The notes: generated by a model from the sequence alone, not told the origin. A stretch of 64,000 bases of DNA from a bacterium (GCA_028712365.1 JAQTQE010000004.1:13806-77805); one strand, 5' to 3'; counted from the first letter of the stretch, positions 33,816 through 62,074 are shown. A program made the numbers and translations.

Positions 33816-33819
33816 AGGT

Positions 33820-44852: not shown

Positions 44853-45483
44853 AGATAGGGAAAAAGAAAGAGTCCGCGAGCTTTATGCTCATGAAGGGCA
44901 ATGTTACGTCACTGGGATAAAACTGGTGGCCGGAGTTGATGAGGCTGGCCGCGGTCCTTTGGCCGGGCCGGTAGTGGCCGGAGCAGTAATATTGCCGCCA
45001 TATGTTTTTTTGCCGAAATTGAATGATTCTAAACTGGTATCTGAAAAGGATAGGGATTTGTTGTACCAGAAAATAAATAGCGTAGCGGTAGCGGTAGGTA
45101 TAGGGGAAGTCAGTGTTGAGTTAATTGACCGGCATAATATTTTGGAAGCCACAAAAATAGCCATGAAACAAGCGATAGAGAATCTGGGGGTAACTCCAGA
45201 TTTTTTATTAACTGATGCTGTTCATTTACCGGATTCACTAGCGCCGCAGAAGAATATTATCAAAGGGGACCGCGTAAGCGCGTCGATAGCTGCGGCTAGC
45301 ATTATCGCCAAGGTCTATCGGGATAAAATAATGCTGGAACTGCATAGAAAATATCCTCTTTATGGTTTTGACCGTCATAAGGGGTATGGCACACAGGAAC
45401 ATCTGGCGGCCTTGGCCAAATACGGTCCATGCCCGCACCACCGGAAAAGTTTTGCCCCCGTTAAAGAGGCTTGGCATGTCTAG
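44839..45483 (+). CDS. rnhB: ribonuclease HII
   Basis: [17 protein letters not shown] active-site motif. The exact start is uncertain; an internal start is possible. Confidence 0.88.
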
Positions 45484-45847
45484 AGTTGATAATCGCCGCA
45501 AAGGATTTGCCGGCGAGGAAAGAGCCGCTGATTATTTGCGCGGTCTGGGATATACGATACTGGAACAAAATTGGTGCAGCCGGCTGGGAGAGCTGGACAT
45601 CATTGCCTTGGACCGGGAAGCACTGGTATTCGTAGAAGTTAAATCGCGTTTGGATAGCGTTTATGGCCTGCCGCAACAAGCCGTGAACGGTTATAAACAA
45701 AGGCAGATAATAAAAGCTGCCCTGGGATATATTAAAAGCAAGGGGATCATGGATAAGGATATAAGGTTTGACGTAGTAAGTATCAATGGCGAAGATATTG
45801 AACTGATCGAGAATGCTTTTCAATCCGATGGCAGATACCGGTATTAA
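45476..45847 (+). CDS. yraN: YraN/UPF0102 family putative endonuclease
   Basis: GEERAADYL...[20 protein letters not shown] restriction-endonuclease-like fold. Start at the ATG at 45476. Confidence 0.8.
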
Positions 45848-45853
45848 GAGCAG

Positions 45854-46741
45854 GTGTATAGGTTTAGAGGTGTAGCGTTGGGTAAGTACTTAATTATATT
45901 TATATTAATTTTTCTTGCGGTACAGAGTAGGGCAGAGGGAATACGCGATGAGATATTTTATCTTAATCGGGAAAACAAACTGTCCATTAATGAAGAAAAT
46001 CTGAATAAACTGAAGCAGGAAGACTCTACCGCGTTGATAGAAATATTAGCTGAAAGCAAAGAAGACCACCCGATCAAGACCATTATGGGTGAATTGCAAG
46101 TATCTACTGCGGCCAAAAATGAGATCATCTTGAAACTGGCTGAATTCGCTGATCAGAGAGCCAGGGATATCATCGAATGGTATATGCTGAACAGCCCGGA
46201 CAGGTTCAATCGGCATATCGCGGCTGTTGCGCTGGGATCAGTTGGCGATAAAACCTCTATTGAAAAGTTAAAAACAGTGATCAAAGAACTTGATCCCGCC
46301 CTGCAGTTATACGCTGCCAGGGCCTTGGGGGAGTTAGGCGATGTTTCCGGTTATGACCTGGCGATTCAGTATTTAAATAGCGCAGACCTGACGTTGAAAA
46401 CCCAGGCCATGTATGCCCTGGCTATGATCGGTCTGCCGGCAGCAATCCCCTTGCTAGAGCGGGAACTGTCTGATAAAAATACCCGGGAAGTTGCCCGGCT
46501 GGCCATTAATAAGATAAAGTATGATAATTTACCGGCAAAAAAGAAACCCGCTTACCTCAGGAAATTATTACAGCGCGAATCTGGTGAAACAGTATACTGG
46601 GCAGCTACGGAATTCATGACTTTGGGCGAAGAATATGTGCGAGAATTGAAAAAGATCGCGCAACGTAAAAAATATCCAGGCGTAGAATTGATCAAGGCGG
46701 CTCTAGCGGCAAAAGAAATCCAAGGCGATATGATAAAGTAA
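45854..46741 (+). CDS. secreted HEAT/PBS-lyase-repeat protein
   Basis: 295 aa. Signal peptide. Repeated AAxALGxxGD units. Confidence 0.6.
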   Translation: MYRFRGVALGKYLIIFILIFLAVQSRAEGIRDEIFYLNRENKLSINEENLNKLKQEDSTALIEILAESKEDHPIKTIMGELQVSTAAKNEIILKLAEFADQRARDIIEWYMLNSPDRFNRHIAAVALGSVGDKTSIEKLKTVIKELDPALQLYAARALGELGDVSGYDLAIQYLNSADLTLKTQAMYALAMIGLPAAIPLLERELSDKNTREVARLAINKIKYDNLPAKKKPAYLRKLLQRESGETVYWAATEFMTLGEEYVRELKKIAQRKKYPGVELIKAALAAKEIQGDMIK

Positions 46742-46753
46742 AGGGACACCTTA

Positions 46754-47734
46754 ATGCGTAAATACTTCATTTTAATTTGTTCGATCCTGGTCGTGAGTTT
46801 GTTTGTCTGGTATAATCCTGGCAAAATAGCTAGAATAGTTTTATTCAAAGAACTAAAAGGACATACAAAAGGCATACTCTCCGTAGCTTTTTCTCCTGAT
46901 GGAAGCTACTTAGCTTCAGGCAGTACGGATAAAACAGTCAAAATATGGTCTTTAGGGTCAAATAGTCCCATTATGACATTTAAAGGTCATACCAATACGG
47001 TTATGTCCGTAGCCTTTTCCCGCAGTGGAAAATATGTAGCGTCAGCCAGTCTGGATGGCACAATTAAACTATGGTCTATTAATGACGGTACCTGTACTCG
47101 TACCTTTAGGGGGCATACCCTGGGGGTTCGGACAGTAGCTTTTTCTCCAGACAGCAAATATCTGGCTTCAGCCAGCGCTGACCGTACCTTAAAGATATGG
47201 AACCTAGAGTCTGGAAAATGTGAAAGGACCATTAAAGTGATAATGCCAACAAAGCGCCAGCATACACCACGGTGGATCACGTTTTCACCATTGGGTCGAT
47301 ATTTGATCTCCGGAGGTACAGACAACAATGCAAGGTTATGGTCTGTTAAGACTGGTAAAAGGTTAAAAACATATAAAGGACATAAGTCATGGGTGAATAC
47401 CGTAGCTTGCGCGAAAAATAAAAATTTATTTGTTTCCGGCAGTGATGATTTTACTGCCAAGCTTTGGAGCATCAAAGGCGGCAGGTGCCGCAAGACATTC
47501 ACTGGCCATACTAATACTGTGGAAAGCGTCGCCATCTCCCCATCTTGCCGGTTCGTGGCTTCGGGTAGCTACGATGGTACAGCGAGGTTATGGTCTGTCG
47601 ACACCGGGAAATGCCTGGAAGTGTATGATTGCCAGAATGAATATGTGACTTCGGTAGCTTTTTCGCCGGATGAAAAATTGTTAGCTAGCGCCGGTGACCA
47701 TGGAAAGATCAAGATCTGGATCTTGCCCCAATAA
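46754..47734 (+). CDS. WD40-repeat protein (7-bladed beta-propeller) with N-terminal membrane anchor
   Basis: 326 aa. Seven canonical GH...WD/WS repeats (KGHTxxVxSVAFSPDG...SGSxDxTxKxW). Confidence 0.85.
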   Translation: MRKYFILICSILVVSLFVWYNPGKIARIVLFKELKGHTKGILSVAFSPDGSYLASGSTDKTVKIWSLGSNSPIMTFKGHTNTVMSVAFSRSGKYVASASLDGTIKLWSINDGTCTRTFRGHTLGVRTVAFSPDSKYLASASADRTLKIWNLESGKCERTIKVIMPTKRQHTPRWITFSPLGRYLISGGTDNNARLWSVKTGKRLKTYKGHKSWVNTVACAKNKNLFVSGSDDFTAKLWSIKGGRCRKTFTGHTNTVESVAISPSCRFVASGSYDGTARLWSVDTGKCLEVYDCQNEYVTSVAFSPDEKLLASAGDHGKIKIWILPQ

Positions 47735-47753
47735 ATCAGGAATAGGAGTAACT

Positions 47754-48182
47754 ATGCAGGAATCTTTTAAAGAAATGATCAAGGAACTAAAAACTTTTTT
47801 CGCGCCGGAAAACATGTATTTCAACCAGGATCTGCAGTTTGTTAAGACCAGGATGGTAGTAACGGAAGAAAAACTGGCGCCGTTATTGGCAATATTGGAT
47901 AAATTTTATAAGGGTCCTTTTAAGCCGGCCGGAGAAAAGCCAGCCAGGGAAATGGGTGACCTGGAAGTGATCCAGGCTTTGAATGGTATCAGGAAAGAAC
48001 AAACCTTGTATCTAAATACCAATGATGCTGAATATGTTTATTTCGCGGCGATCTGGCCCTGGCAGAGCGATCCGTCACAAGCCAGTCTTTTTCTTGGTTT
48101 GCATTTTGGAGGTCTTTTGACTCCCGCCCGAAAAGTATTAATGGAAAACACGAAAAAGGAACTGGAAGCCGTTGTCCAATAA
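47754..48182 (+). CDS. hypothetical protein
   Basis: 142 aa starting at the ATG with AGGAG RBS. No recognisable motif. Confidence 0.4.
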   Translation: MQESFKEMIKELKTFFAPENMYFNQDLQFVKTRMVVTEEKLAPLLAILDKFYKGPFKPAGEKPAREMGDLEVIQALNGIRKEQTLYLNTNDAEYVYFAAIWPWQSDPSQASLFLGLHFGGLLTPARKVLMENTKKELEAVVQ

Positions 48183-49299
48183 CCTGCCCCTGGAAAAAAT
48201 AGTAATTCTTTATGCTCCTTGCGGGGCTGGCCATAAAAAGGCCGCTGAAGCCCTGGCCGGGTATTTTGGCCAACAGGCTGGCCTGGCCGTGGAAATTAAA
48301 GACATACTGGATTTTGCTCCTGCCTGGTACCGTTTCATTTATCGTGATGGATACTATTTATTGGTCAAGAAATTTCCTAGACTATGGTCCTTGCTTTATC
48401 AGGGGACGGAGCTTGGGTATAAAGAACATATCCTGGTCAGGTTCGCCCGTTGGATCGAAGATAGTTTATTTGATCCTTTTTACCGCTACCTGAAACTGGC
48501 CAAGCCGACAGTGCTGATCACTACTCATTTTTTGCCAATTTCCCTGTTAAAGGATATAAAAAGGGATTTCAAGTTTGGCGCCGTGATCACTGATTATTAT
48601 CCGCATAGCCTGTGGGTCAGCAGCCAGGTGGATAAATATTTTGTTGCTTCTGACTATGTAAAACAGGTCTTGCGGCAAAAAGGGGTCCGGGAAGACAGTA
48701 TTGATATAACCGGCATCCCTATCCAGCCGATCGCGGTGACTGGATCTGATCATAAAAAGAATCTATTTACCGTGCTGATTTTAAGCGGAGCCGGGGGGGT
48801 CGGTGACCTCTCTTCGATCATTAAGGGATTAGAGGTATTTACCGGGAAAATGCAGGTGATCGTGAGTACAGGCTTGAACCGGAAACTGCAAGCTAAACTG
48901 GTTCAAGAAGCAAAGGTCAGTACTTTAGACGTTCAGGTGATCGGTTTTACTGATAAGATATATGAATATTACGCCAGCAGTGATATAGTGATCACTAAGC
49001 CGGGCGGTTTAACGGTCACCGAATGCCTGACTTTTGGATTGCCGCTGATCATGATCAATGCCATTCCGGGGCAGGAAGAGGAAAATGCCAAATTTGTGGC
49101 TGAACATCAAGCCGGGATCCTGGTCAAGGATATTAAGCAAATACCGGGAATAATTGATGGCTGGCTGAGTAACCCGTCACAACTTGCCGCTATGAAAGCG
49201 CGAGCTTTAATAACCGCGCCACATGACAGCAATGAAAGGATTTTTAATAAATTGGTACGCAATAAAAATTGTTGCAATAATAATCGGGATAGTGTATAA
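48172..49299 (+). CDS. MGDG-synthase-like / UgtP-type diacylglycerol glycosyltransferase (GT28)
   Basis: 375 aa. N-terminal ILYAPCGAGHKKAAEAL, typical of the MGDG_synth domain. C-terminal GT28 domain. TTG start. Confidence 0.7.
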   Translation: MSNNLPLEKIVILYAPCGAGHKKAAEALAGYFGQQAGLAVEIKDILDFAPAWYRFIYRDGYYLLVKKFPRLWSLLYQGTELGYKEHILVRFARWIEDSLFDPFYRYLKLAKPTVLITTHFLPISLLKDIKRDFKFGAVITDYYPHSLWVSSQVDKYFVASDYVKQVLRQKGVREDSIDITGIPIQPIAVTGSDHKKNLFTVLILSGAGGVGDLSSIIKGLEVFTGKMQVIVSTGLNRKLQAKLVQEAKVSTLDVQVIGFTDKIYEYYASSDIVITKPGGLTVTECLTFGLPLIMINAIPGQEEENAKFVAEHQAGILVKDIKQIPGIIDGWLSNPSQLAAMKARALITAPHDSNERIFNKLVRNKNCCNNNRDSV

Positions 49300-49312
49300 G
49301 ATTTGTAAATTT

Positions 49313-50002
49313 ATGAAAAGGCGAACCATGTTTAGTAAAAAACTATTTTCCATACTGGCCATAACTCTGGCTGTATCCTGGCTGCTGCCGCGCTTTCTTA
49401 TGGCGGAAGAAGAAGCTTTGATCAGGGAAGAATTGAATGAGCGGGGTAAATCCGGGGCCAAACGGCACATGCTCATTTTCAGCGGCGGAGGATATTTGGG
49501 GCGGAACAAACTTTTAGCTGGATATGAAGATTACACTGATAACTATTCCGGCCATTTGGAAGTGCGCATGGGCTTGGCCGCGGTTAAGGAGCGGCCGGAT
49601 ATTGTCATTAGCCTTAATTATGATTTTATGCCGCTGATCTTGCCTGATGGTATATATGGTATGAGTGAAAATATTATTTCCATTAACCTGAATGCCTATT
49701 ATGTTTTTTACGCCCAGCGAAAACTTAATTTCTTTGCCGGCCCTGGTATCGGTTACTATTTTGATACGCTCACTATGGATACGCCGGCCAGTGGCAAATT
49801 AGAGCATCAATACCGGTTTGTCGGATATAATTTAGGTGTCGGCGCTCAGTATTACTTGGATAAATTCATTACCCTGATACCCTTGTTGAAATACCATCAG
49901 ATCAATGAGCCTGGTTCTTTTAAGGCGAAACATTTGGTCTTTCAAGTCGGTTTTAACTACAATTTCGCAGGAACGGATTGGAATAAATGGAAAAAAGACT
50001 AA
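49313..50002 (+). CDS. small outer-membrane beta-barrel protein
   Basis: 229 aa. Signal peptide. Aromatic-rich alternating strands (GYNLGVGAQYY, FQVGFNYNF). Confidence 0.5.
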   Translation: MKRRTMFSKKLFSILAITLAVSWLLPRFLMAEEEALIREELNERGKSGAKRHMLIFSGGGYLGRNKLLAGYEDYTDNYSGHLEVRMGLAAVKERPDIVISLNYDFMPLILPDGIYGMSENIISINLNAYYVFYAQRKLNFFAGPGIGYYFDTLTMDTPASGKLEHQYRFVGYNLGVGAQYYLDKFITLIPLLKYHQINEPGSFKAKHLVFQVGFNYNFAGTDWNKWKKD

Positions 50003-50928
50003 TAACCATTACAACTATGATCCTGGTTGCTCTTACCGGTTGTGATAAGAAAACCACGCCGGTATTGAATGAGCCATCCAGTTCGATCTATGCCATCAGC
50101 GGAGTTTGTACGCAGGTCGAGACCAAGGATTTTCCCAACGCGCGGGCGTTCTGTTCTATTACTGACCAGAATAATTCTCCTTTATTTGATTTTGCCAAGG
50201 GCAATTTCAGCATCGCTGAAGAAGGTAAGCCGGTGGTAGTGGAAGAAGTCAAGAAAGTGGACAATAATGAAGACCCGCTGTCCGTGGTACTGGTACTTGA
50301 CCGTAGTGGCAGTATGAGTGGTACGGCAACCTCTAACCTGGATATCGCGGCTACTAACTTCATCAACAAGCTAGGGGTGAAAGATGAATGTGAAATAGTG
50401 AATTTTGATGATTCGGTAAAAGTGAGCCAGGTTTTTACCAGCAATCATCAATTGCTGGAAAAGGGTATCTCTGATTACGCTGATCTGGGAGGAGCCACGG
50501 CGTTCTTTGATGCTGTAGGACAGGCAGCCACTGATCTCAGTTCCCGTAATGGGCGGAAATTCATTCTGGCCATGACTGATGGATATGAGAATTCCAGCGT
50601 AAACTATCCATATGCTGATCCACTTCATCCTGATCCGACAGCGATCAAAGCTTACGTTAACAGCAAAGGATTATCGGTTTTTATAGTTGGCCTGGGTTAT
50701 GAAATTGATAAGGATATGCTGCGGGAACTGGCAACTGACACGGGAGCGCGTTATTTTGAAGCGACATCTTCCTTTGAACTGGACAACTTGTACCAGCAAG
50801 CTTTAACTCAGTTTAACAATGAAATAGTCATCAAGTTTCGTAGTTTAAGCAATGGCGCGCGCAATTTACGGGTTTATATGAATTACGGTAGTTTTACCCA
50901 ATCCTTTGAAAAGAAATATTCTAATTAG
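49987..50928 (+). CDS. von Willebrand factor A domain lipoprotein
   Basis: 313 aa. Lipobox LTGC. MIDAS motif LVLDRSGSMSG. Confidence 0.75.
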   Translation: MEKRLITITTMILVALTGCDKKTTPVLNEPSSSIYAISGVCTQVETKDFPNARAFCSITDQNNSPLFDFAKGNFSIAEEGKPVVVEEVKKVDNNEDPLSVVLVLDRSGSMSGTATSNLDIAATNFINKLGVKDECEIVNFDDSVKVSQVFTSNHQLLEKGISDYADLGGATAFFDAVGQAATDLSSRNGRKFILAMTDGYENSSVNYPYADPLHPDPTAIKAYVNSKGLSVFIVGLGYEIDKDMLRELATDTGARYFEATSSFELDNLYQQALTQFNNEIVIKFRSLSNGARNLRVYMNYGSFTQSFEKKYSN

Positions 50929-51011
50929 ATGATCCAACTAATTTCATAGATATTTAATAAATCGTACTACTCAGTGTGGAATGGTAATATGGATTTCATT
51001 GTTTCTATTTA

Positions 51012-51046
51012 AAGGCAATTCTCTAATTAAGGGAGTTGCCTTTTTG
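51012..51046 (+). terminator. terminator-like hairpin after the vWA gene
   Basis: AAGGCAA...TTGCCTT stem followed by TTTTGTATTT. Sequence-related to the def leader hairpin. Confidence 0.45.
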
Positions 51047-51062
51047 TATTTAAGGAGGATGT

Positions 51063-51737
51063 ATGAAAAAACTATTCTTTATGACCTTATTGCTTTTAAT
51101 AGGTGTTTTAGCCTATATGAATAACCCTGGCTATGCTTTTACTTTTCTAGATGAACGCACTAAAAGCGTGGGCAAAGACACAGTTGAATATACAATGGAG
51201 ATGGCTAATCCCGTAGTAAATGGTAATTTGAAATATGAAAATGATAAGTTTAAAATTCATTTTGCTATTCGCTTTCATGGTATTGATATGATTATATACA
51301 ATAAGACTGGCAATGCTATAAAACTTGACTATGGTTTATGGGCCTTTAATTATACTAATAATAAGTCTTATAAAGTATACAATTATGTTGGGACTGACGC
51401 AGGTAATAAAAATGCCCCGCCTTTTACTATTGTTGCGCCGGGATCTACCTATAAAGGAGGAGTAACCACAGAGATCAATAAATTTAATATAAGAAAACCG
51501 CAAAACCTTTATAATACATTGATCTTTCCTACAACTGAATATGTGGCCAATGTTGAGAATCCCGAGCCACCTCTTTCATACAAAGGAAAGTCATTCTCTC
51601 TCTCCATGCCTTTGACTATCAATGGAGTTAAAGAAGATTATACCTTCACCTTTAAGATAACGGATGTTAAGATAATAAAGTATGAAAAACAGTGGAAAAA
51701 GGAAGGCGGTTGGTCTAAATCGAAAAAAGCGAAATAA
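51063..51737 (+). CDS. secreted hypothetical protein (low GC)
   Basis: 224 aa. Signal peptide. Lys-rich C-terminus. GC about 30%. Confidence 0.45.
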   Translation: MKKLFFMTLLLLIGVLAYMNNPGYAFTFLDERTKSVGKDTVEYTMEMANPVVNGNLKYENDKFKIHFAIRFHGIDMIIYNKTGNAIKLDYGLWAFNYTNNKSYKVYNYVGTDAGNKNAPPFTIVAPGSTYKGGVTTEINKFNIRKPQNLYNTLIFPTTEYVANVENPEPPLSYKGKSFSLSMPLTINGVKEDYTFTFKITDVKIIKYEKQWKKEGGWSKSKKAK

Positions 51738-51816
51738 CGTGTTTAACGAATATTTTAAAAGAATAATAGATGTTTTAGTCATAGTTGGTTATTAAATGGA
51801 AAGAAGGAAAATTCTT

Positions 51817-52389
51817 ATGAAAAAGGTCCTAGGTTCTTTTTTCCTATTAATTAGTTTGTGTTCTTCTTTATACGGATTTGAGCGGGATACAAACTATGAC
51901 ATTGCTGTTAGTAGCTTCAGCCGTGCAGATATTATACGAGTTTTTAAATACGCTGTTCATTTTAATGAAGTATTTAAAATCAGTACATATGGTGATGAGA
52001 ATTACACAAAGATTAGAAAATTACTTGAACTTTATGATGAAATGATTCTTGCTCCATACTATCGAGGAAGTGTTGAAATTCTATCAAAAAGTAATGATCA
52101 AGAATTAACGCTCGAAATGCTTAAACTATTAATTTCCTATGAGAATTCAGCGGATGAAGAATTATCCTATGGATTAGCTGAGGTGTATGCAAAGAACCCT
52201 AATCTAATTGAAACAACAGTAAAGGAATTTAATATCGAAATACAGAAAGGATTAACTAAAAGACTAGAGGAGTCCTTAAGGCTATTAATAGAAAATAAGG
52301 AAAGGCCAAACATAGAATTACTTCGAAAACGACTTAGGGCTTTTATTGAAACTATTGCTGGGTCAGAAGGCAACGGGGTAAGCCCTTGA
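51817..52389 (+). CDS. secreted hypothetical protein (low GC)
   Basis: Signal peptide MKKVLGSFFLLISLCSS. No motif. Confidence 0.4.
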   Translation: MKKVLGSFFLLISLCSSLYGFERDTNYDIAVSSFSRADIIRVFKYAVHFNEVFKISTYGDENYTKIRKLLELYDEMILAPYYRGSVEILSKSNDQELTLEMLKLLISYENSADEELSYGLAEVYAKNPNLIETTVKEFNIEIQKGLTKRLEESLRLLIENKERPNIELLRKRLRAFIETIAGSEGNGVSP

Positions 52390-52528
52390 AATATGAAGCA
52401 GCTAAGAATTAGAGAAGCTAACATCTTAAGTTTTTGTTGACAAATATATGCTTATAAGATATAAAGATACCCTTTAACCCGGAATTTGCAATAGGATTTG
52501 GAATTCGTCGAAAAATCGCTTTGTCTTT

Positions 52529-52585
52529 TCGTCTAAAAAATCGCGAACATACCGCTGCGAGTATGCTCGCACTTTTTTGAGACGA
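52529..52585 (+). terminator. long imperfect hairpin plus T-tract upstream of comM
   Basis: Inner stem GCGAACATAC/GTATGCTCGC followed by TTTTTT. Outer stem TCGTCTAAAAAA/TTTTTTGAGACGA. Confidence 0.5.
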
Positions 52586-52682
52586 AAATACTGCGCGCTT
52601 TCCCGTCTCGGTTCGTCAAACCTATTGTAAAATCCGGGTTTAGTCAAAAGGGTATTTTTCTTTTATCCACTAAGGAGTCTTC

Positions 52683-54215
52683 ATGTTAGCCAAGGTATTA
52701 ACCAGCGCGGTATTGGGCATAGATGCTTATATTATTAAGGTGGAAGTGGATATCAGCAAAGGCCTGCCGGCTTTCAATATAGTCGGCTTGCCGGATACCA
52801 GCGTACGGGAGAGCCGAGACCGGGTAATGTCTGCGATCAAAAACAGCGAATTGGAATTCCCAACTAAACGTATGACCGTAAATATGGCTCCGGCTGATAT
52901 CAAAAAAGAAGGAGCCAGTTTTGACCTGGCAATAGCTATCGGTATCCTGGCGGCTCACGGCCAGGTACGGACGGATAAATTAAAAGATTATGTTTTTCTG
53001 GGTGAACTGGCTCTGGATGGTTCGATCAGGCAGGTACGTGGCGTCTTGTCTATCGCCTTAGCCCTGCGCCAGGAAAAGGTCAAGGGCATTATTGTTCCGG
53101 AGCATAATAAAACTGAGGCCGGAGTGATAGAAAGCCTGGCTGTATATCCGGTAACCCATTTACGGCAGGTAGTTGATTTCTTGAACAACGAAAGCAAACT
53201 GCCCAAGTTTAAATTTAACCTGCAGGAAGCATTTGAGCGCAATTGCCGGTATGAAGTAGATTTTAGCGATGTGAAAGGACAGATGTTCGCTAAACGGGCT
53301 TTAGAAGTGGCTGCGGCTGGCGGCCATAACATTCTGCTTATCGGCAGCCCCGGGTCAGGGAAGACCATGCTGGCGAAAAGACTGCCGACCATTTTACCGG
53401 ATATGTCGTTAGAAGAAAGCATTGAAACTACTAAAATACACAGTGTTTCGGGTAATTTGGATGGGCTGTCATTAGTAGCGACCAGGCCATTTCGTTCGCC
53501 GCATCATACGATCAGTGATGTCGCCCTGATCGGCGGGGGGACGTATCCCAAACCAGGGGAAGTAAGCTTGTCGCATAATGGCGTGCTTTTCCTGGATGAA
53601 TTACCTGAATTCCACCGCAATGTCCTGGAAGTGCTCAGGCAACCCTTGGAAGACGGGGTAGTGACCATCTCCAGGGCAGTGACTAGTTTAACCTATCCAG
53701 CTAAATTCATGATGGTGGCGGCGATGAATCCGTGCCCCTGCGGATATCATGGGGACAGTAAGCAGGAATGCCTTTGCTCTGTTTTCAAGGTCCAGAAATA
53801 CCTTTCCCGGGTTTCCGGACCTTTGCTGGACCGGATAGATATCCACGTGGAAGTGCCGCGGCTCAAATTCACGGAAATGAACAATGAAACGCCTGCTGAA
53901 AGCAGCGCCGCGGTCAAGGAAAGGGTGAACCAGGCCAGGGCTATCCAGCAACAACGTTTCCAGAAAGAAAAAAATATATATTGTAACGCCCATATGCAGC
54001 CAAAACACTTGAGAAAATACTGCCAGCTCACTGTTGAAAGCCAGGAATTGCTCAAAAATGCCATTAACAAGCTGAATCTTAGCGCCCGTGCTTATGACCG
54101 CATTTTAAAGGTGGCCAGGACCATAAGCGACTTGGAAAACCAGCCCCAGATCCAATCCAATCATATTGCCGAAGCCCTGCAATACCGCAGCCTGGATAAG
54201 AATTTGTTTGCCTGA
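52683..54215 (+). CDS. comM: Mg-chelatase-like AAA+ ATPase ComM/YifB
   Basis: 510 aa. N-terminal Lon-SSD-like region, MCM-type AAA+ (Walker A GSPGSGKT) and C-terminal ChlI region. Confidence 0.9.
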   Translation: MLAKVLTSAVLGIDAYIIKVEVDISKGLPAFNIVGLPDTSVRESRDRVMSAIKNSELEFPTKRMTVNMAPADIKKEGASFDLAIAIGILAAHGQVRTDKLKDYVFLGELALDGSIRQVRGVLSIALALRQEKVKGIIVPEHNKTEAGVIESLAVYPVTHLRQVVDFLNNESKLPKFKFNLQEAFERNCRYEVDFSDVKGQMFAKRALEVAAAGGHNILLIGSPGSGKTMLAKRLPTILPDMSLEESIETTKIHSVSGNLDGLSLVATRPFRSPHHTISDVALIGGGTYPKPGEVSLSHNGVLFLDELPEFHRNVLEVLRQPLEDGVVTISRAVTSLTYPAKFMMVAAMNPCPCGYHGDSKQECLCSVFKVQKYLSRVSGPLLDRIDIHVEVPRLKFTEMNNETPAESSAAVKERVNQARAIQQQRFQKEKNIYCNAHMQPKHLRKYCQLTVESQELLKNAINKLNLSARAYDRILKVARTISDLENQPQIQSNHIAEALQYRSLDKNLFA

Positions 54216-54589: not shown

Positions 54590-55168
54590 GTGAAGAAGGT
54601 ATTGTTTTTTGCATTGTTAATGCTCATGGCAAGTGTTCTGTGGGCTGAAGAGTCAACAGCCCAAGGCACAAAAAAGATTGGTATAGGATATTTTGACAAT
54701 GGCTTGGATCTTGTTTACTGGAAAAACGAGCATAAAGGGATTCAGGCTAATGTCAAGCTATCTGCAAGCAGATTGGGCGACGTATATGATTACGGTAATA
54801 CACAGAACAGTTGGGATTATCGCATCAGATTTGCATTTTTAAGAAAAGTAAAGGAATACGATTTTCTTAAGATTTCGATAGCTTATGGCATAAGCTGGAG
54901 TGATGTAAAAAGCGTACAGAATGCAGATTATTCAATGTACACAAGAACGGCAGTATTACAAGTCGGGCCTATATTTGAAATATTCATGCCTTTTTGTAAA
55001 AACTTATGTTTAGCCAGTGACTTGAAGCTTAATCTTGGCATTACCGTTAGAACTCACGACATACCTGCGAACATGACAACGACTCCAAGAAGGTCCAATA
55101 CCGAAAGTATATATTTTAGCGGCACAGGATTTACCTTGGATACGGTTTCAATAAGGTATTATTTCTGA
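54590..55168 (+). CDS. small outer-membrane beta-barrel protein
   Basis: 192 aa. GTG start. Signal peptide. Ends ...IRYYF. Confidence 0.5.
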   Translation: MKKVLFFALLMLMASVLWAEESTAQGTKKIGIGYFDNGLDLVYWKNEHKGIQANVKLSASRLGDVYDYGNTQNSWDYRIRFAFLRKVKEYDFLKISIAYGISWSDVKSVQNADYSMYTRTAVLQVGPIFEIFMPFCKNLCLASDLKLNLGITVRTHDIPANMTTTPRRSNTESIYFSGTGFTLDTVSIRYYF

Positions 55169-55181
55169 GAAAGAGGATAAG

Positions 55182-56090
55182 ATGATAAAGTTTAAACGAA
55201 ACAAATTTGTATTTATGTTTTTGCTTACGGCCTCGATTCTGCTTGCTTATAATGTTTACGCCGAAAATAACAATCCTGACTATTCCACCAAAGAATCGAA
55301 ATACAAGAAGCATAAGCACGTTAAGAAAAGAGTGAAAGAAATAGAGCGATCGGGAGAGAATTCTGTTCCGAGCCTCATAAGATTATTAAATGATGATGAC
55401 CCAGATACTAGAATATCTGCCATGTCAAGTCTGGGGCGGATAGGAAGTAAGAAAGCAATAGCTCCAATTATAAAATTAATGGAAAATGATAAGGATGATA
55501 ATATAAGAATAAGCGCCGCAACTGTCTTGGGTTATTTAAGTGGAACAGAAGCAATTCCAGCTCTCAAGAAAGCCTTATCAGATAGTAATAAAATGATCCA
55601 AATAAGAGCAGCCGGCTCTCTTGGTATGCTTAACGACGGCTCTGGTTACGCAATTATATTTGGTTATAGCGAGGATGCGGATATCAATGTAAAAGCCAAT
55701 GCTTTGCAGGCTTTTGGCCTTATTGCGGATGAGCGAGCTATTTCTATACTGGGAAAGTACAAGGATGATAATAATTATCGTCTTAGGAAAGCCGCATTAA
55801 TATCTATCAGGCAAATTGGGATTGCCAGAGAGTACAGGATTGCCTTACAGAAAAATGGTAAAAAGGTGGCAGATTATAAGAAGCTTTCCTTGCTTGAATA
55901 TTCTTTATCCGATACCAATCCCATTATAAGAAAGTGGGCGTTGAGAACTCTGATTTTGAGAATAGATGAAAAGGAAGTGGTGGAACTACTTGTAAAAATT
56001 GCCAATAATGACAAGAATCCTTCCCAAGACAACGTTATGGAGGTTCTCAAGAATTATAACATTGCCTTTGATAAGAGAAAGAAGAAATGA
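55182..56090 (+). CDS. secreted HEAT/PBS-lyase-repeat protein (paralog-like of 45854..46741)
   Basis: 302 aa. Signal peptide. Repeated DxxxRxxAxxxLGxxG units. Confidence 0.55.
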   Translation: MIKFKRNKFVFMFLLTASILLAYNVYAENNNPDYSTKESKYKKHKHVKKRVKEIERSGENSVPSLIRLLNDDDPDTRISAMSSLGRIGSKKAIAPIIKLMENDKDDNIRISAATVLGYLSGTEAIPALKKALSDSNKMIQIRAAGSLGMLNDGSGYAIIFGYSEDADINVKANALQAFGLIADERAISILGKYKDDNNYRLRKAALISIRQIGIAREYRIALQKNGKKVADYKKLSLLEYSLSDTNPIIRKWALRTLILRIDEKEVVELLVKIANNDKNPSQDNVMEVLKNYNIAFDKRKKK

Positions 56091-56518
56091 GGAAGAATAA
56101 TTTCCTTTACCGTGTTTTGTTTTTCTTATTAATGTTCTTAGATAGTAATTGCATCGCTGGGGAGAGTCAAATGCAGGTTAGATTGTGGAAAGAATTATCA
56201 ACAGTGAATTTATCTGAATTAAATAGTTATATTAATAGTTTGTCCCTGCTTGCAGATGGGGCGACAGTTCCTTCCATTGATACAATAAAAACTGGAGAGG
56301 CCTCAGGTTGTAGATATGCCCGGATTTCTAAAATGAAACAAAAAGAGAACAATGATACGGCTTTAGTAACAATAACAAACGGCGACCTATTAAGAGATTT
56401 GCTTGGAAACGATATTGTATGTGATTATAGCGGGATAACAATATCCATTTCAGCTAATTTGAGTTTTGAAAGGCAGGAAGATGAAAAAGGCATTGCTTGT
56501 TACATTCTTAATATTTAA
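56087..56518 (+). CDS. secreted hypothetical protein
   Basis: 143 aa. Signal peptide. No motif. Confidence 0.35.
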   Translation: MRKNNFLYRVLFFLLMFLDSNCIAGESQMQVRLWKELSTVNLSELNSYINSLSLLADGATVPSIDTIKTGEASGCRYARISKMKQKENNDTALVTITNGDLLRDLLGNDIVCDYSGITISISANLSFERQEDEKGIACYILNI

Positions 56519-57170
56519 TTTAATAACAATAGCTAAAGTAGGCTCTTGCGAATATACATGGCACCTATTCACAAGTACGCCACCTATTAAGGGAAAAGTT
56601 ATTGATTCGGTTACTGGGGAACCAATCAAAGACGCTATATTGGTGGTGAGATGGTTTAAAGCTAAACCTGCTATTGTGGATACTGCAGACAGCGTTATTC
56701 TTGAAAAAGGCTTTATAACCGATAGTAAGGGAGAATTTACCATCCCTAATAAAATTAATATGCATTTTACTTCCTGGTTTGCCGGGATGGGGATAGGAGT
56801 CATGCATCCTTCATACAGTATTCTGGTTACCGGCCTATCAGACGAGCGAAACAGCCTTTTTTATGCGGATTCAGAATTTAAGAAAGGGATTATCATTGCT
56901 ACTCTCAAGCTGACAAAATTAACTGACAAATATATAAAGCCAGAAGATAATATTAATTTACTTGAAGAGTTCAGCGAAATATTTCCTAAATGCTATTCTT
57001 TGTATTTCAAATGGGCCAAGAAACTGAAGGTTAATACTAATAAAGAAGCTGTATTTAGAAACTGGGATCAAATAATTAACAGATTCCCGGGTGCCCCTAA
57101 ACATCTTGACTTAACTATTGATATAGAAAACGAAAAATCCTTAATTAATAATATAGGGAATGGAGAGTAA
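56481..57170 (+). CDS. secreted hypothetical protein with carboxypeptidase-regulatory-like N-domain
   Basis: GKVIDSVTGEPIKDAILVV resembles the CarboxypepD_reg fold. Start taken at MKKALLV. Confidence 0.4.
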   Translation: MKKALLVTFLIFNLITIAKVGSCEYTWHLFTSTPPIKGKVIDSVTGEPIKDAILVVRWFKAKPAIVDTADSVILEKGFITDSKGEFTIPNKINMHFTSWFAGMGIGVMHPSYSILVTGLSDERNSLFYADSEFKKGIIIATLKLTKLTDKYIKPEDNINLLEEFSEIFPKCYSLYFKWAKKLKVNTNKEAVFRNWDQIINRFPGAPKHLDLTIDIENEKSLINNIGNGE

Positions 57171-57172
57171 TA

Positions 57173-60100
57173 ATGAGGAAAATCATTTTATTTTTAACTT
57201 TATTTATGATTTTGAATTTGTTCTCATTAACTAATCTTTGGTCACATAGTGCAACTGTCGTTCATCCCAAATTATCTGATAAAGCCGTCAGTAATTTAGA
57301 TGCCTTCTTTAATGAGGTTAAGACATATAAAAATCAGATTAAACAAGGGAGCATTGATGAAGATACTCCTATTTGGCAGGTGCTAAATCATTTTTATAAT
57401 CCTATAAATGGTGCCGGTTTTCCAGGAGGAATGCCTACAAACCAGTATGTAAAAGATATATGGGATGCATCAATTTACGAATATTCACAAGGGAATAAAA
57501 CGGAAGCCTATTACCTGTTAGGAAAAGTTGCTCATTTGGTTCAAGATATGTCTGTCCCGGCACATGTTCATATAGACTCGCATTTATTTGGAGATGATTA
57601 TGAAATTTGGTGCAAGGGGCCTGGTGAAACTGGTAGTAATATAATCGGATGTGTTAATACAGCAGAAGGCTATATTACTGTATCTGGCTATGAGGATGCA
57701 ATTGAGCAAATGGCAAGGCTGGGTTATGATTCTTCGAGATTTGAGGCGACATTATATGCTGATTCCAGATCAGTTGATGAAAATTGTGAATTGGCAAAAA
57801 TGTTCCCGGGCTCTATCAGATACATAGTTCCGCTTGACGCTAATACTTTAGATAATGGATTCTGGGAAATTGATAACATTGGGAATTATGATGGAGTGGA
57901 AACCGATAATGGCAGCAATGACTGGTGGGAGATAGATGAATATATTGGCTGGTTCTATATAGAGAATATTGGAGGGGATAGTTATCCAGTAGCTCCCGAA
58001 CAAATAAGAAGTGATATCACCAACCCAAGTACAAATTCGTCAATGGTAAGCAATACCAAATCATTGTACCAACTTTTTGCGGAACAATTAATCCCTTTAC
58101 CCATAAAATATTCCACAGGCTTACTGAAATATTTCTACGATAATCGTCCGCAAATCGTTTATCCTTCAAAGGTAACTAATTTAACGGCAACATCTACTGT
58201 TGATAGCGTTTCTCTTATTTGGGAAGCAGCAACAGAAGGAGCTGCGGTTAAAAACTATGCAATTTATAGAGATAACAGTTATGTAGGTCAAACAAATTCA
58301 ACCACACTGACATTTACTGATATGGGCAGGAGTGCAAACACCATATATGAGTACGAAGTTAGTGCTATTGCGGAAAACGGATTAGAAGGTGAAAAGACAG
58401 GTATAATGGTTGTTACTCAATCTCAGCCCGGCAGCAATGAACCAGTCCCAGTGATAATGAACCAAATTTCCAATATTACTGAGACTACAGCTGTTCTAAG
58501 CTGGTCACAAAGCAATGACGGTAATTTCAAAGAATACAGGATTTATCGTTCCCAGGGAAGTGGTGTTAGTGAAAATTCCACTCTAGTCACAACTATTACA
58601 TCAAGAGCCATTACAGCTTTTACTGACATTGGTTTATCAGAAGCAACAACATATTATTACCGTGTTTACGTATTCAACACTCAAGATTTATCTGCAAAGA
58701 GCAATGAGGTGTTTGCACGAAGTATCGGCAATACAATTCCTGATTTCGCAGTTTCTCCAGAAGACATAAGTATGCAATCAACAAATCCTAATCCTGGAGA
58801 TATTGTTACAATAAATGCTATAATCCACAATATTGGGCAAATACCTCCTGATGACGAAATTGTTGTAAGATTCTATGATGGAGACCCGGCAAATGGCGGA
58901 ATCCTAATTGGTGAAGATAAAAAAAGTTTCTGTTGGGTATTCGGGGGAGATGCCTCTGACACCTATGGAGTTGATTGCGGAATCATAGTTGATGATAATT
59001 TAGAAAAAAGATTATATTTAAGTGATACAAGTTTCCAATTATTCGGCCCAAATAACATTGACCTTGAAGGCAGTAATAGTGCAGGAGGCAAATATTACAC
59101 AGATAATTGTTTAACTGTTGATTTTAATAACGGGGCATGGCAAAATGTTAACATAACTCCTACCCCTCACATAGTCAAGGCATATGATAGTGGATTCATT
59201 CATGTAAGAGTATCCGTTTCGGGTGACTTTGATAGTGGTGGTCACTTTAAGGCTAATTTCCATATACGAGGTCGCAAGGCTAGAGATAATAATCAACCAA
59301 TAGAAGCCTCAGTTAACTGGAATACAAGTAACAGAACCGGTTCCCATGACATCTATGTAGTAGTGGATCCTGATAATATAATAACATCAGAAGTTAACAA
59401 GGGCAATAATATAAGCCATAAGCGTATAAACATTGGTCCCGATAAGCCTGATTTGAACATTACATCAAATGATATAAGCTTCACCAGGGAAACCCTGGAT
59501 GTTACAATTAAGGCAAAAATATCCAACACGAATAATATCGAAGCTAATAATGTGAAGGTGAATTTCTATGACGGGTTGCCTTCTAATAATATTCTTATAG
59601 GAAGCACGACTATACCTAAAATACCCATTCCTCTTCTATCAGGTTCAAAGTCAGGGGATGACTGGGCAACCATGGAAACCGGCATCTTCCAATTGGTAAT
59701 CACTTCAAGCACTGTAGATAATGGAGGCCTGGCACCTGGGACTTATACGGCGCTTAAAAAGAACTGGATATATTCTAATATTTCTTACGGAGATAATTTG
59801 CCTATAAATGTTAATCCGGAAGTGACTGCTAGCCATCACAACAATACTCTGGAAATTTATGAAAAAACTGCCACGGGTTTCAAGACACGAATCTGGACAT
59901 ACGCCGATATATATCAGCCCGGGGTGGCTTTCTCTTATAGGCCGTGGCTATATACCAAAGACCAAATTACTTTCGACTGGTCATTGCCAGAGTATAATAG
60001 TGTGGCGCAGGTTAGTTGGAATATTAACGGATTGTCAGGTAGCCACGACGTTTACGTGGTAGTGGATCCTGATGATAGCATTTCAGAAGTTCAAGAAGAT

Positions 60101-62056
60101 AATAATACTGCCTCAAAATCGATTACTTTTGAAAATCAACCTCCTAATATTCCAGTTGCTCCTTCAGGGCCGATTTCAGGCTATACTACTGAAATTTATA
60201 GCTTTAGCACCTATTCTTCTGATATAAATGGAGATAAGATTAAGTTTGTATTTGATTGGGGAGATGGGACAACCACCGAGACTGATTATGGCGATTATGA
60301 TTACACCGGTAAAGTGATCATGAGTGCCTCGCACACCTGGAGTAGTGAAGGAATATACGATGTAAAAGTCCAGGCAATTGACACTTCTAATTCTTCCACT
60401 GATTTTAGTGAGCCCCTTAAAGCTACCTTGATTCAAAAGTCAGGTTGGGGCTCGGATAATCCAATTACTCCTGGCACAAGAATTGACCGGTTCCCTGAAG
60501 TTGATTCCGATAACTCTGGAAATGTACATATTGCTTGGTTCGGCAAAGGAAGTACGGGAAACATTTATTATCGAAGGCTGATAAATAACGGAAACACATG
60601 GAATGACGAGAGCGACTTTGGCACGGTAACATTAAATGACACTCATTTGCCTATTATAAGAAGCGATAAAACAAGCTCTTTGCAATTGTTATGGGACGAT
60701 TATAGAGCGACCGGGAATTTTGAAATATACAGGAAAACAAGTTCAGATCAAGGATTCTCCTGGACATATCCAGACGAGAATTTCAGTTATACCACAGCTA
60801 ATTCAAGGTTTCCAAGTATTGCAATCAACGGCCAAACCATTCACGCCGTTTGGGCCGAGGGAAATAAAATTCATTATAAGAAAAGCTCAAACGGAGGAAC
60901 AACCTGGTCAAATCCTAGTACCATAATTACAACACCGTTTTTTAATGTTAATAGTAGACTTAATCTTGTTTGCGATTCAACAAGTAATGTGTTTTTAGTC
61001 TGGGCAGGTCAAATGCCGAACGTTGCCTGGGCGATTAAGAATGCGTATTTTTCTTATAGCAAAGATAATGGCAATACATGGCAATCTACCCAAACAATAT
61101 ATTCTGATACTAGTTTTGCAGGTTTTGAACTTAATCCTGATATTACTGTAGATTCATCAAGTAATATTTATATTGTCTATGACACGAAGAGTAATCAAAT
61201 ATTTTATAGAACAGGTGCATGGTCAGGCGGGAATATGGTATTATCCAGTCCAGCGGTGTTAGTATCTGATATCCATAATTCGCAGTATCCGAATATAAGG
61301 GCAGATAGGTCAAACAATTTATATCTGTTCTGGCAAAATGCAAGGGATGGCAACTACGAAATCTATAATAAGTTCAGAAAGGCAGGTGAAACTACTTGGG
61401 GAGCCGATACAAGATTGACTCAGGCAGCGGGAGATTCTTTATATCCCAAGGCAAGTATTACCGGGGGTTATTTGCATTTGGTCTGGCAGGATAATCGTAA
61501 TGGTAATTATCAGATTTATTACAATAGAATGCGTTTACGTCGTGCGCCTTGGGTGATAGATTTTTCTGCGCCTCATTTTGATGTTCCACCATATGATGAA
61601 AGTGTTCCGCCTTATGAAAACAATGATCCTAACCAAACAGCAATATCATTTAAAGTGCAAGATGATACTTATAATAAGCATACAGTGTCAGTATGGGTAT
61701 ATAATGTTAATGGTACCAGTGTGATAAAAAAGCTCATTACTGATCAAATAATCAATTTAGATTCTAATTCTGATCTTAACTGGCCATATATGAAAACTTT
61801 CACTGATTTCGTTATTTGGGATGGGAGAGATGAAAACGGTAATTTTGTGTCAGAATCAACTTCATATAAAGTAAAAATTAGTGTCAGAGCAGTTGATGAT
61901 CCGACAATAGAACCGATTGATGGATTGCCTGGCTTAATTGGCACAAATTGGACAAACATCGATACCACTGATCAAGAATATATTTTTACTGATCCGACCT
62001 TTGTACAGCCTAATCGCAAAAACATCAAAGCTTGGCACGAGTTTATACGGCAATAA
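57173..62056 (+). CDS. giant secreted multidomain protein: Zn-dependent phospholipase C/P1-nuclease-like domain, FN3 x2, CARDB-like, PKD, BNR/sialidase-like propeller, FlgD-Ig-like C-terminus
   Basis: 1627 aa, GC about 33%. The mature N-terminus begins WSH, as in PLC where W1 ligands Zn. AHLVQDMSVPAH gives H, D at +4 and H at +10 with the same spacing as the clostridial alpha-toxin Zn site. FN3 (TYEYEVSA). PKD (FDWGDGT...HTW). Four SxDxGxTW BNR motifs. C-terminal WDGRDENGNFV of FlgD-Ig-like domains. Confidence 0.65.
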   Translation: MRKIILFLTLFMILNLFSLTNLWSHSATVVHPKLSDKAVSNLDAFFNEVKTYKNQIKQGSIDEDTPIWQVLNHFYNPINGAGFPGGMPTNQYVKDIWDASIYEYSQGNKTEAYYLLGKVAHLVQDMSVPAHVHIDSHLFGDDYEIWCKGPGETGSNIIGCVNTAEGYITVSGYEDAIEQMARLGYDSSRFEATLYADSRSVDENCELAKMFPGSIRYIVPLDANTLDNGFWEIDNIGNYDGVETDNGSNDWWEIDEYIGWFYIENIGGDSYPVAPEQIRSDITNPSTNSSMVSNTKSLYQLFAEQLIPLPIKYSTGLLKYFYDNRPQIVYPSKVTNLTATSTVDSVSLIWEAATEGAAVKNYAIYRDNSYVGQTNSTTLTFTDMGRSANTIYEYEVSAIAENGLEGEKTGIMVVTQSQPGSNEPVPVIMNQISNITETTAVLSWSQSNDGNFKEYRIYRSQGSGVSENSTLVTTITSRAITAFTDIGLSEATTYYYRVYVFNTQDLSAKSNEVFARSIGNTIPDFAVSPEDISMQSTNPNPGDIVTINAIIHNIGQIPPDDEIVVRFYDGDPANGGILIGEDKKSFCWVFGGDASDTYGVDCGIIVDDNLEKRLYLSDTSFQLFGPNNIDLEGSNSAGGKYYTDNCLTVDFNNGAWQNVNITPTPHIVKAYDSGFIHVRVSVSGDFDSGGHFKANFHIRGRKARDNNQPIEASVNWNTSNRTGSHDIYVVVDPDNIITSEVNKGNNISHKRINIGPDKPDLNITSNDISFTRETLDVTIKAKISNTNNIEANNVKVNFYDGLPSNNILIGSTTIPKIPIPLLSGSKSGDDWATMETGIFQLVITSSTVDNGGLAPGTYTALKKNWIYSNISYGDNLPINVNPEVTASHHNNTLEIYEKTATGFKTRIWTYADIYQPGVAFSYRPWLYTKDQITFDWSLPEYNSVAQVSWNINGLSGSHDVYVVVDPDDSISEVQEDNNTASKSITFENQPPNIPVAPSGPISGYTTEIYSFSTYSSDINGDKIKFVFDWGDGTTTETDYGDYDYTGKVIMSASHTWSSEGIYDVKVQAIDTSNSSTDFSEPLKATLIQKSGWGSDNPITPGTRIDRFPEVDSDNSGNVHIAWFGKGSTGNIYYRRLINNGNTWNDESDFGTVTLNDTHLPIIRSDKTSSLQLLWDDYRATGNFEIYRKTSSDQGFSWTYPDENFSYTTANSRFPSIAINGQTIHAVWAEGNKIHYKKSSNGGTTWSNPSTIITTPFFNVNSRLNLVCDSTSNVFLVWAGQMPNVAWAIKNAYFSYSKDNGNTWQSTQTIYSDTSFAGFELNPDITVDSSSNIYIVYDTKSNQIFYRTGAWSGGNMVLSSPAVLVSDIHNSQYPNIRADRSNNLYLFWQNARDGNYEIYNKFRKAGETTWGADTRLTQAAGDSLYPKASITGGYLHLVWQDNRNGNYQIYYNRMRLRRAPWVIDFSAPHFDVPPYDESVPPYENNDPNQTAISFKVQDDTYNKHTVSVWVYNVNGTSVIKKLITDQIINLDSNSDLNWPYMKTFTDFVIWDGRDENGNFVSESTSYKVKISVRAVDDPTIEPIDGLPGLIGTNWTNIDTTDQEYIFTDPTFVQPNRKNIKAWHEFIRQ

Positions 62057-62074
62057 AAATACTGGAGGGATAAA

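Follow-up and report, generated by a model that had tools for sequence, protein, structure and literature searches.

We analyzed the interval between yraN and comM in a 64,000-nucleotide stretch of bacterial DNA (GCA_028712365.1 JAQTQE010000004.1:13806-77805), the whole of which is referred to as the window. From the yraN stop at position 45847 to the comM start at 52683, the interval was 6,835 bp long and contained eight open reading frames (ORFs), all on the + strand, and a Logan contig from run SRR22315508 (L001) carried identical DNA. A sequence-only reading made earlier had described about 6.8 kb with eight genes wedged between yraN and comM, and the length and ORF coordinates agreed with it. 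Its domain calls, namely HEAT, WD40, MGDG-synthase-like glycosyltransferase (GT), outer-membrane protein (OMP), and von Willebrand factor A (vWA) lipoprotein with a metal ion-dependent adhesion site (MIDAS), were also confirmed by Pfam, NCBIfam, and motif reading. The genes of the interval and its two borders are as follows.

45476..45847, + strand: yraN (UPF0102), the left border (NCBIfam YraN models, 1e-27 to 1e-33; gene call on L001), overlapping the rnhB stop by 8 nt
45878..46741 (alternative start 45854), + strand: secreted (periplasmic) HEAT/PBS-lyase-type repeat protein (Pfam HEAT_2 3.9e-18, HEAT_PBS 2.7e-11)
46754..47734, + strand: seven-repeat WD40 propeller with an N-terminal membrane anchor (Pfam WD40 4.3e-85, seven stretches)
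47754..48182, + strand: orf3, a 142-amino-acid cytoplasmic protein of no known family (no Pfam, NCBIfam, or PDB sequence match)
48172..49299, + strand: GT28-type glycosyl-diacylglycerol synthase-like GT, UgtP/MGD1-like (Pfam MGDG_synth 4.1e-26 and Glyco_tran_28_C 6.9e-15)
49328..50002, + strand: small outer-membrane beta-barrel protein (OMP), first gene of a portable pair (Pfam OMP_b-brl, PF13505, 2.6e-06)
49987..50928, + strand: vWA lipoprotein with a complete MIDAS site, second gene of the pair (Pfam VWA 1.1e-13)
51063..51737, + strand: orfA, a secreted near-orphan (signal peptide; GC 0.335, GC at third codon positions [GC3] 0.32)
51796..52389 (alternative start 51817), + strand: orfB, a secreted orphan (signal peptide; GC 0.330, GC3 0.25)
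52683..54215, + strand: comM/yifB, Mg-chelatase-like AAA+ ATPase, the right border, intact (TIGR00368 3.7e-209)

Relatives were found by protein searches with the vWA protein and orf3 and were checked by tblastn. Nine informative contexts were obtained, all in metagenome-assembled genomes (MAGs) or metagenome contigs, and one of the relatives, GCA_016218565.1, is annotated as Elusimicrobia bacterium. The gene orders are given below, with percentages indicating identity to the window.

Window: HEAT-WD40-orf3-GT-OMP-vWA, then orfA-orfB-comM
L120 (vWA 83%): rnhB-yraN-HEAT-WD40-orf3-GT-OMP-vWA-comM, with 88 bp before comM
L126 (vWA 78%): HEAT-orf3-GT-OMP-vWA, three unrelated genes (one CBM30), comM; no WD40
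L134 (orf3 88%): HEAT-orf3-GT, a 166-amino-acid gene, a HigBA-like pair, comM; no WD40, OMP, or vWA
L130 (vWA 67%): HEAT-WD40-orf3-SNF transporter-OMP-vWA; no GT
L131 (orf3 67%, rnhB 68%): HEAT-WD40-orf3-GT, nine unrelated, mostly low-GC genes, comM; no OMP-vWA
L129 (vWA 58%): rplS-OMP-vWA-rnhB-yraN, then opposite-strand genes; no comM
L123, L124, L125, and L128 (vWA 54-55%): hydrogenase cluster-M48-PilZ-OMP-vWA-FGGY kinase
L133 (orf3 61%): alpha/beta hydrolase-orf3-panC, with orf3 alone

We consider it likely that the interval between yraN and comM is a lineage-specific accretion zone of an uncultured clade, made up of at least three layers with separate histories. The layer beside yraN, HEAT-(WD40)-orf3-(GT), would be an old addition common to the whole clade and would be read through from the rpsP-trmD-rplS-rnhB-yraN operon, with HEAT and orf3 constant at the site and WD40 and GT dispensable or replaceable. 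The second layer, OMP-vWA, would be a gene pair that has relocated among three genomic locations, and the third, orfA and orfB, would be a recent low-GC cargo just upstream of the comM promoter. The gene content, synteny variation, composition, overlaps, motifs, and folds of the locus are observations, and the biochemical roles given below for the products are proposals.

The HEAT gene was found at the same position in every relative that retains the yraN-side synteny, and its orthologs in L120, L126, L134, L130, and L131 were 48-73% identical by tblastn. Its product has a signal peptide ending in AEG, and six orthologs shared both a signal peptide and the mature N-terminus, EGIRDEIFY. The WD40 protein, which begins with MRK followed by a hydrophobic helix, was 75, 63, and 54% identical to that of the window in L120, L130, and L131, respectively, and the gene was missing in L126 and L134, where the gap between HEAT and orf3 was only 66 and 37 bp. 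The HEAT and WD40 proteins may serve as periplasmic protein-binding scaffolds. Among the genes of the block, orf3 was the best conserved, with identities of 94, 91, 88, 85, and 67% in L120, L126, L134, L130, and L131, compared with 85, 79, 84, 75, and 68% for rnhB in the same order. L129 was without HEAT-WD40-orf3-GT, except that a 24-amino-acid relic of the GT nucleotide-sugar motif, IMLHTIPGQEEDNAKFGVRNNAGI* (IPGQEEDNAKF..AGI*), was present directly after yraN at positions 3770-3841 of that locus. The relic implies ancestral presence followed by erosion, suggesting that the HEAT-WD40-orf3-GT layer predates the clade in which it is still seen.

With respect to the OMP-vWA layer, the OMP was found directly upstream of vWA in all nine contexts that reach upstream of vWA, and three further short contigs also had OMP and vWA adjoining. 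According to the gene calls, the OMP stop overlapped the vWA start by 16 nt in the window and by 6-19 nt across every context. The pair occurred in three genomic contexts, which were the yraN...comM site, the junction between rplS and rnhB, and that between PilZ and the FGGY kinase. Four genomes had the pair at the yraN...comM site, and two (L134 and L131) lacked it there. Across contexts the OMP was 36-82% and the vWA protein 54-83% identical, the values at the distant sites being 36-41 and 54-58%, respectively. Because adjacency and overlap are kept in three contexts at such low identity, selection on the pair is indicated. The vWA homologs at 31-36% identity (L135 and L136) were without an OMP neighbor, and the pairing is therefore specific to this lineage. 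Judged from the sequences, OMP-vWA is a self-contained, translationally coupled unit that moves together.

The OMP has a signal peptide and a C-terminal GFNYNF motif, followed by a conserved WxKW tail of 9-10 residues. It scored 28.2 bits against OMP_b-brl, for which the cutoff is 28.7, and the L128 ortholog was listed without a 'weak' mark. In the vWA protein, reading of the sequence and alignment indicated a lipobox (...VALTGC19) with C19 invariant in 21 homologs, in which the MIDAS residues D105-R-S107-G-S109, T171, and T197-D198-G199 were also invariant. An AlphaFold2 (AF2) model of the protein (predicted local distance difference test [pLDDT] score of 89) had the vWA domain inserted in a beta-sandwich that consists of N-terminal (37-90) and C-terminal (280-311) strands. 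Its best fold matches were ITIH1, Catenulispora 4fx5, archaeal ArnB, the Streptococcus minor pilin PilB, Mfa5, and BatB, most of which bind ligands via the MIDAS site. It may be that the small barrel is embedded in the outer membrane, where it retains or displays the vWA protein by way of the lipid anchor of the latter, and that the vWA protein binds a ligand via its Mg2+/Mn2+ MIDAS site. Taken with the barrel that is co-translated with it, the fold of the vWA protein suggests an adhesin- or receptor-like outer-membrane complex, for which we infer a physical interaction between the two proteins.

The third layer lies in a slot just upstream of comM, the content of which differed from genome to genome: L120 had no gene there, the window orfA and orfB, L126 three genes, L134 a toxin-antitoxin pair, and L131 nine genes. 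The slot genes were also low in GC in L126, L134, and L131. No family was found for orfA or orfB in Pfam, NCBIfam, PADLOC, or PHROGs. Only three homologs of orfA (88, 45, and 43% identical) were detected in 5.8 billion protein clusters, and by tblastn, a 22-amino-acid relic of orfA was detected at the equivalent place in L134, and orfB was absent from all related loci. The two genes are a separate, recent, strain-specific layer. In L134, a direct duplication of about 300 bp (12374-12677 and 13456-13770), consisting of the comM promoter, the palindromic element described below, and the first 20 comM codons, bracketed the Gp49/HTH (HigBA-like) toxin-antitoxin cassette. This looks like either an insertion scar at the comM 5' end or an assembly artifact.

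The composition of the interval was also compared with that of the surrounding genes. GC3 was 0.43-0.48 in the six genes from HEAT to vWA, 0.42-0.60 in 44 upstream core genes, and 0.44-0.46 in rpsP, rnhB, and yraN, and it was 0.25-0.32 in orfA and orfB. No integrase, transposase, relaxase, or recombinase domain was found in the interval by Pfam and NCBIfam, and there were no tRNAs or Rfam families in it. No flanking direct repeats of at least 16 nt were present at its borders, nor any direct or inverted repeats longer than expected by chance. The six-gene part is native-like in composition and ancestral to the clade, and on these sequence criteria it is not a mobile insertion.

The junction between yraN and comM was surveyed in other phyla with a yraN hidden Markov model, using the 77 comM loci, of 80, that had at least 500 bp of usable upstream sequence. 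yraN abutted comM in only 2 of the 77, L048 (WOR-3) and L070, both of which carried the entire rpsP...rnhB-yraN-comM string with a junction of 0-3 bp. A scan of the genome collection with comM gave a best match of just 65% identity, and none of the eight genes was present in the 80 loci. The sequence-only reading had taken rnhB-yraN-comM for a widely conserved adjacency and the block for an insertion at that tight junction. The former was weakly borne out, in that the whole string does exist in L048 and L070 but in so small a fraction of the loci. As for the latter, the block is indeed extra relative to the junction in these outgroup MAGs, whereas no recovered clade member has yraN adjoining comM: each had at least four genes between them or, like L129, lacked comM. 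A single insertion of all eight genes was not supported, orfA and orfB being a separate layer and the six-gene part being native-like and ancestral.

The same reading had proposed that the HEAT, WD40, GT, OMP, and vWA genes constitute one envelope-assembly or surface-complex module. In the comparison, however, the families did not co-occur as a set, and all six were found together only in the window and L120. Together with the separation of yraN and comM throughout the recovered clade, this largely matches what the sequence-only reading had itself named as evidence against a module. To set out this alternative fully, a glycolipid synthase, HEAT/WD40 scaffolds, an OMP, and a vWA lipoprotein would act together across the envelope as one uncharacterized module. 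The six genes are tightly packed with overlaps (spacings of 12, 19, -11, 28, and -16 nt from HEAT to vWA), no convincing terminator was found inside the block, and they are probably co-transcribed. The identical six genes in identical order in L120, the presence of five of the six families in L130 and L126, and predicted locations that cover the cytoplasm, inner membrane, periplasm, and outer membrane are all consistent with such a module. Nevertheless, WD40 is lost in L126 and L134, an SNF transporter takes the place of GT in L130, and OMP-vWA is missing here in L134 and L131 and occupies unrelated positions in L129 and L123/L128, and orf3 is found by itself in L133. In addition, the nearest GT homologs outside the clade (50% identity; L082-L084) have other neighbors, and the uniform strand across the window makes co-transcription weak evidence for shared function. 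We accordingly regard a single module as unlikely. The opposite alternative, that there are no functional units at all and that unrelated genes are strung on a unidirectional chromosome with OMP and vWA adjoining by accident, would fit the 59 main ORFs of the window, which all lie on the + strand with tiny gaps so that adjacency is cheap, and would also fit the distant vWA homologs that have no OMP neighbor. It is difficult to reconcile with the OMP-vWA adjacency and overlap in three contexts, down to 36-41% identity for OMP and 54-58% for vWA, or with the orf3/GT overlap in 4 of 6 genomes, and we think it improbable.

Another possibility is a mobile genomic or defense island, recently integrated and targeting the comM neighborhood. 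Islands are known to target comM in Acinetobacter baumannii (PMC11441513, PMC11014353), and the slot upstream of comM in the present clade is hypervariable and low in GC, with a toxin-antitoxin cassette inside a direct duplication of about 300 bp in L134 and a MITE-like (miniature inverted-repeat transposable element-like) insertion in the comM leader. The AbaR/Tn7-like islands of A. baumannii are thus similar in the turnover of accessory genes near comM. They differ in that they interrupt comM and carry transposition genes (PMC11441513, PMC11014353), whereas here comM is intact, the slot lies upstream of the promoter, and transposition genes are absent. The lack of integrase, transposase, relaxase, tRNA, and repeats of at least 16 nt in the interval argues against an island, as do the native-like GC3 of the six genes and their conservation in place even in relatives with an rnhB identity of about 68%. 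A defense-system or phage origin was examined as well and rejected, as the matches in PADLOC and PHROGs were all generic ones to repeats or vWA domains; in PADLOC, these were partial matches of HEAT and WD40 to the 1,972-position HEAT-ARM_XIII repeat model and a weak WGR_XIII match. An island would account at most for the orfA/orfB layer, and as an explanation of the interval, it is very unlikely.

Several points weigh against the layered accretion zone that we prefer. The sample is small, consisting of nine contexts from MAGs or metagenome contigs, and two of the loci, L123 and L131, share an assembly; their core GC is similar, as is their tetranucleotide usage (r = 0.84), and both may stem from a single genome. 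The window and L120 carry HEAT through vWA as an uninterrupted, probably co-transcribed run with one gene order, which L130 retains apart from the replacement of GT by SNF, so that a functional link may exist within the sub-clade. Furthermore, the Pfam score of the OMP is slightly below the curated cutoff, and the interaction of OMP with vWA is an inferred one.

Within the first layer, the orf3 stop overlapped the GT start by 11 nt in the window, and the two genes overlapped in 4 of the 6 genomes with orf3 at the yraN site. The orf3 product would be a cytoplasmic protein translationally coupled to GT. Its AF2 model (pLDDT 80.7) had the order helix-strand-strand-helix...strand-strand-strand-helix, and no significant match to PDB folds was obtained by Foldseek. 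A Roadblock/LC7-like fold, which had been suspected from the order of secondary structures, was unsupported, as no PDB match was below E 0.017 and the template modeling (TM) score was at most 0.35. A profile search of 1.84 billion representatives yielded 138 remote relatives, mostly of 105-150 amino acids. Some of them are the N-terminal domain of DUF4388/TPR/Lcl_C proteins of about 800 amino acids and others stand alone with about 110-145 amino acids, and a common motif of the family was GGIRxxQTLY...YAxxWPWxD. Pfam gave no match even for 29 remote orf3 homologs. orf3 is a member of a small-domain family that has neither a Pfam entry nor a solved-fold match, and apart from orf3, the component families are all of known kinds.

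The GT scored 92.5 bits against Pfam MGDG_synth, far above the cutoff of 25, and 177 bits against NCBIfam PRK13609 (diglucosyl-diacylglycerol synthase UgtP), for which the cutoff is 500. These scores place it in the GT28 MGDG_synth superfamily and not in a named equivalog. Its PDB matches were 9wde, a processive diacylglycerol beta-glucosyltransferase (6.5e-33, C-terminal half), and 4wyi, MGD1 (2.4e-28, full length). The best reading of the protein is a putative glycosyl-diacylglycerol synthase, which would synthesize a membrane lipid of the glycosyl-diacylglycerol type on the cytoplasmic side of the inner membrane. A metagenome scan with the GT found the three short contigs L082-L084 at 50% identity and distant homologs at about 30%, and the neighbors of the GT homologs in L082-L084 were unrelated (a GAF/ANTAR protein, a pilin, and a small ORF).

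The noncoding features of the interval are as follows.

51011..51053, + strand: intrinsic-terminator-like hairpin of 14 pairs followed by a T run, 3' of vWA
52437..52465, + strand: promoter-like site for comM, TTGACA, 17 nt, TATAAA (read from the sequence; conserved in L126 and L134)
52477..52642, no strand assigned: 162-nt near-perfect palindrome, MITE-like, with a 4-bp TTTA duplication (empty site in L126/L127)

The hairpin at 51011-51053 is a terminator-like end of the HEAT...vWA transcription unit, and a comparable hairpin with a T run was found after vWA in L120. The 59 main ORFs of the window share one orientation strictly through the dcw cluster, the ribosomal-protein genes, and the accessory genes, and the cumulative GC skew climbed steadily across the profiled 40-58 kb.

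The spacer between orfB and comM was 293 bp. The promoter-like site in it is omitted by the consensus promoter scanner, as its second hexamer ends in A. In L126, a short hairpin and then a U run lay between the comM promoter and the ribosome-binding site of comM. The palindrome was inserted, in both the window and L134, in the loop of this short leader hairpin. The empty site in L126/L127 was CCCTTTAGTC, where the flanks abut with a 4-nt alignment overlap. The 18-nt terminal inverted repeats (52478-52495 and 52621-52638) were CCCGGAATTTGCAATAGG and CCTATTGTAAAATCCGGG, and the fold z-scores of the two strands were -8.5 and -8.3. One copy was present in the 64-kb window, and further copies were seen in L134 only, one of them 95% identical and at the same site. 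From its inverted repeats, its TTTA duplication, and the presence of an empty site, the 162-nt element appears MITE-like, with a single copy in the window. The conserved 250 nt upstream of comM, near-identical in L134, had also been considered as a 6S or other noncoding RNA. Rfam found nothing there, and this interpretation of the leader was rejected because both strands fold equally as one long hairpin and the site is cleanly empty in L126/L127. A reverse ORF of 57 amino acids (52474-52647, - strand) lying wholly inside the palindrome is probably not a gene.

L126 (10920-11062) and L134 (11538-11654) shared a promoter-like sequence with a leader hairpin (TTGACAAATACCGATTAAAAG..TATAATAGTATA...AGCATTAGTT..AACTAATGCTTTTTT), which in both precedes small secreted genes that are not homologous to each other. 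It is located after vWA in L126 and directly after GT in L134, and its position thus gives the exact boundary of the presence or absence of OMP-vWA.

Downstream of comM, the window contained at least 8.8 kb of low-GC genes with secreted products (54590-63376; GC3 0.31-0.38). They encode an OMP-like protein of 192 amino acids, a second HEAT protein (HEAT2), two orphans, a secreted multidomain protein of 1,627 amino acids with Zn phospholipase C, fn3, CARDB, PKD, and BNR domains, and a TPR protein. HEAT2 was rejected as a duplicate of the HEAT protein of the interval, the similarity being at the repeat level only (34% over 101 amino acids), and OMP2 downstream of comM was likewise rejected as a duplicate of the OMP, to which it is unrelated (E 0.57). 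In L120, L126, and L127, comM was followed instead by a gene of 180-185 amino acids, a BamD-like gene, a helix-turn-helix gene, dprA, and topA, continuing into xerC in L120 and L127. As dprA-topA in the relatives corresponds to low-GC genes here, comM has variable low-GC cargo on either side. Elsewhere in the window (31638-34767), a 725-amino-acid protein with a type IX secretion C-terminal sorting domain (Por_Secre_tail/CHU_C) adjoined a PorV/FadL-like outer-membrane protein, and this pair suggests cargo handling of the type IX secretion kind in this lineage.

A single module, if true, would represent a new multi-protein envelope machine. The comparative data point instead to an ordinary pattern, in which a layered, clade-specific accessory zone lies inside a conserved housekeeping string. 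Three components are nevertheless worth keeping in view: OMP-vWA, which could plausibly serve as an adhesin or receptor in an uncultured lineage that has been little studied; orf3, whose conservation is roughly that of the adjoining ribosomal-operon genes; and the space upstream of comM, as a hotspot of cargo turnover with low-GC orphans, a toxin-antitoxin cassette, and a MITE-like hairpin. None of the three overturns current understanding.

Among the known systems, UgtP/YpfP and plant MGD1, which are GT28 enzymes, are similar to the GT of the window in homology and in having MGDG_synth and GT28 C-terminal domains, and the window GT differs in scoring under the equivalog cutoff and in its apparent coupling to orf3. 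For the vWA protein, the best NCBIfam match was TIGR03436, acidobact_VWFA (2.1e-16, residues 57-204), with a score of 60.3 bits that is below the cutoff of 81.25, which makes the window protein a relative and not a member of that family. The best fold matches, the ITIH heavy chains, ArnB, and 4fx5 (E 8.5e-14 to 5.5e-12), likewise have the vWA domain inserted in a beta-sandwich. The identities were only 10-15%, however, and they include a eukaryotic serum protein and an archaeal cytoplasmic regulator, so that the likeness is architectural only. BatA and BatB of the Bat operon, which are associated with aerotolerance in Bacteroides and Leptospira, have a similar vWA fold (BatB 3ibs, TM 0.71, target-normalized) and are also envelope-associated. 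Unlike them, the window vWA protein is a lipoprotein with its domain inside a beta-sandwich, whereas the Bat proteins are anchored by transmembrane helices, and it scored 23 bits against BatA_Lepto, for which the cutoff is 380. The Bat partners, the MoxR ATPase, DUF58, and TPR proteins, were not among the neighbors in the window or the relatives.

In the gliding of Myxococcus xanthus, a platform of GltA/B/H/K barrels controls the retention of the vWA lipoprotein CglB and its exposure (PMC9946355). One could imagine that in the sub-clade of the window and L120, both units have come to act as one trans-envelope surface-adhesion device resembling CglB/Glt in these Elusimicrobia-like bacteria, although we hold this to be quite improbable. 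In such a device, the GT, regulated by orf3 as a member of an undescribed 'WPW' domain family, would supply a glycolipid on which the assembly or anchoring of a periplasmic HEAT/WD40 scaffold depends, and this scaffold would be linked to the adhesin complex of barrel and vWA protein. The window pair differs from CglB/Glt in that its neighborhood contains neither Agl/Glt motor genes nor other genes for gliding, the barrel is a single small one encoded immediately upstream with overlapping codons, and the OMP-vWA pair is confined to one uncultured clade. Even with these differences, CglB/Glt, an outer-membrane vWA/MIDAS lipoprotein that works with integral beta-barrels, would be the best functional analogy for OMP-vWA.

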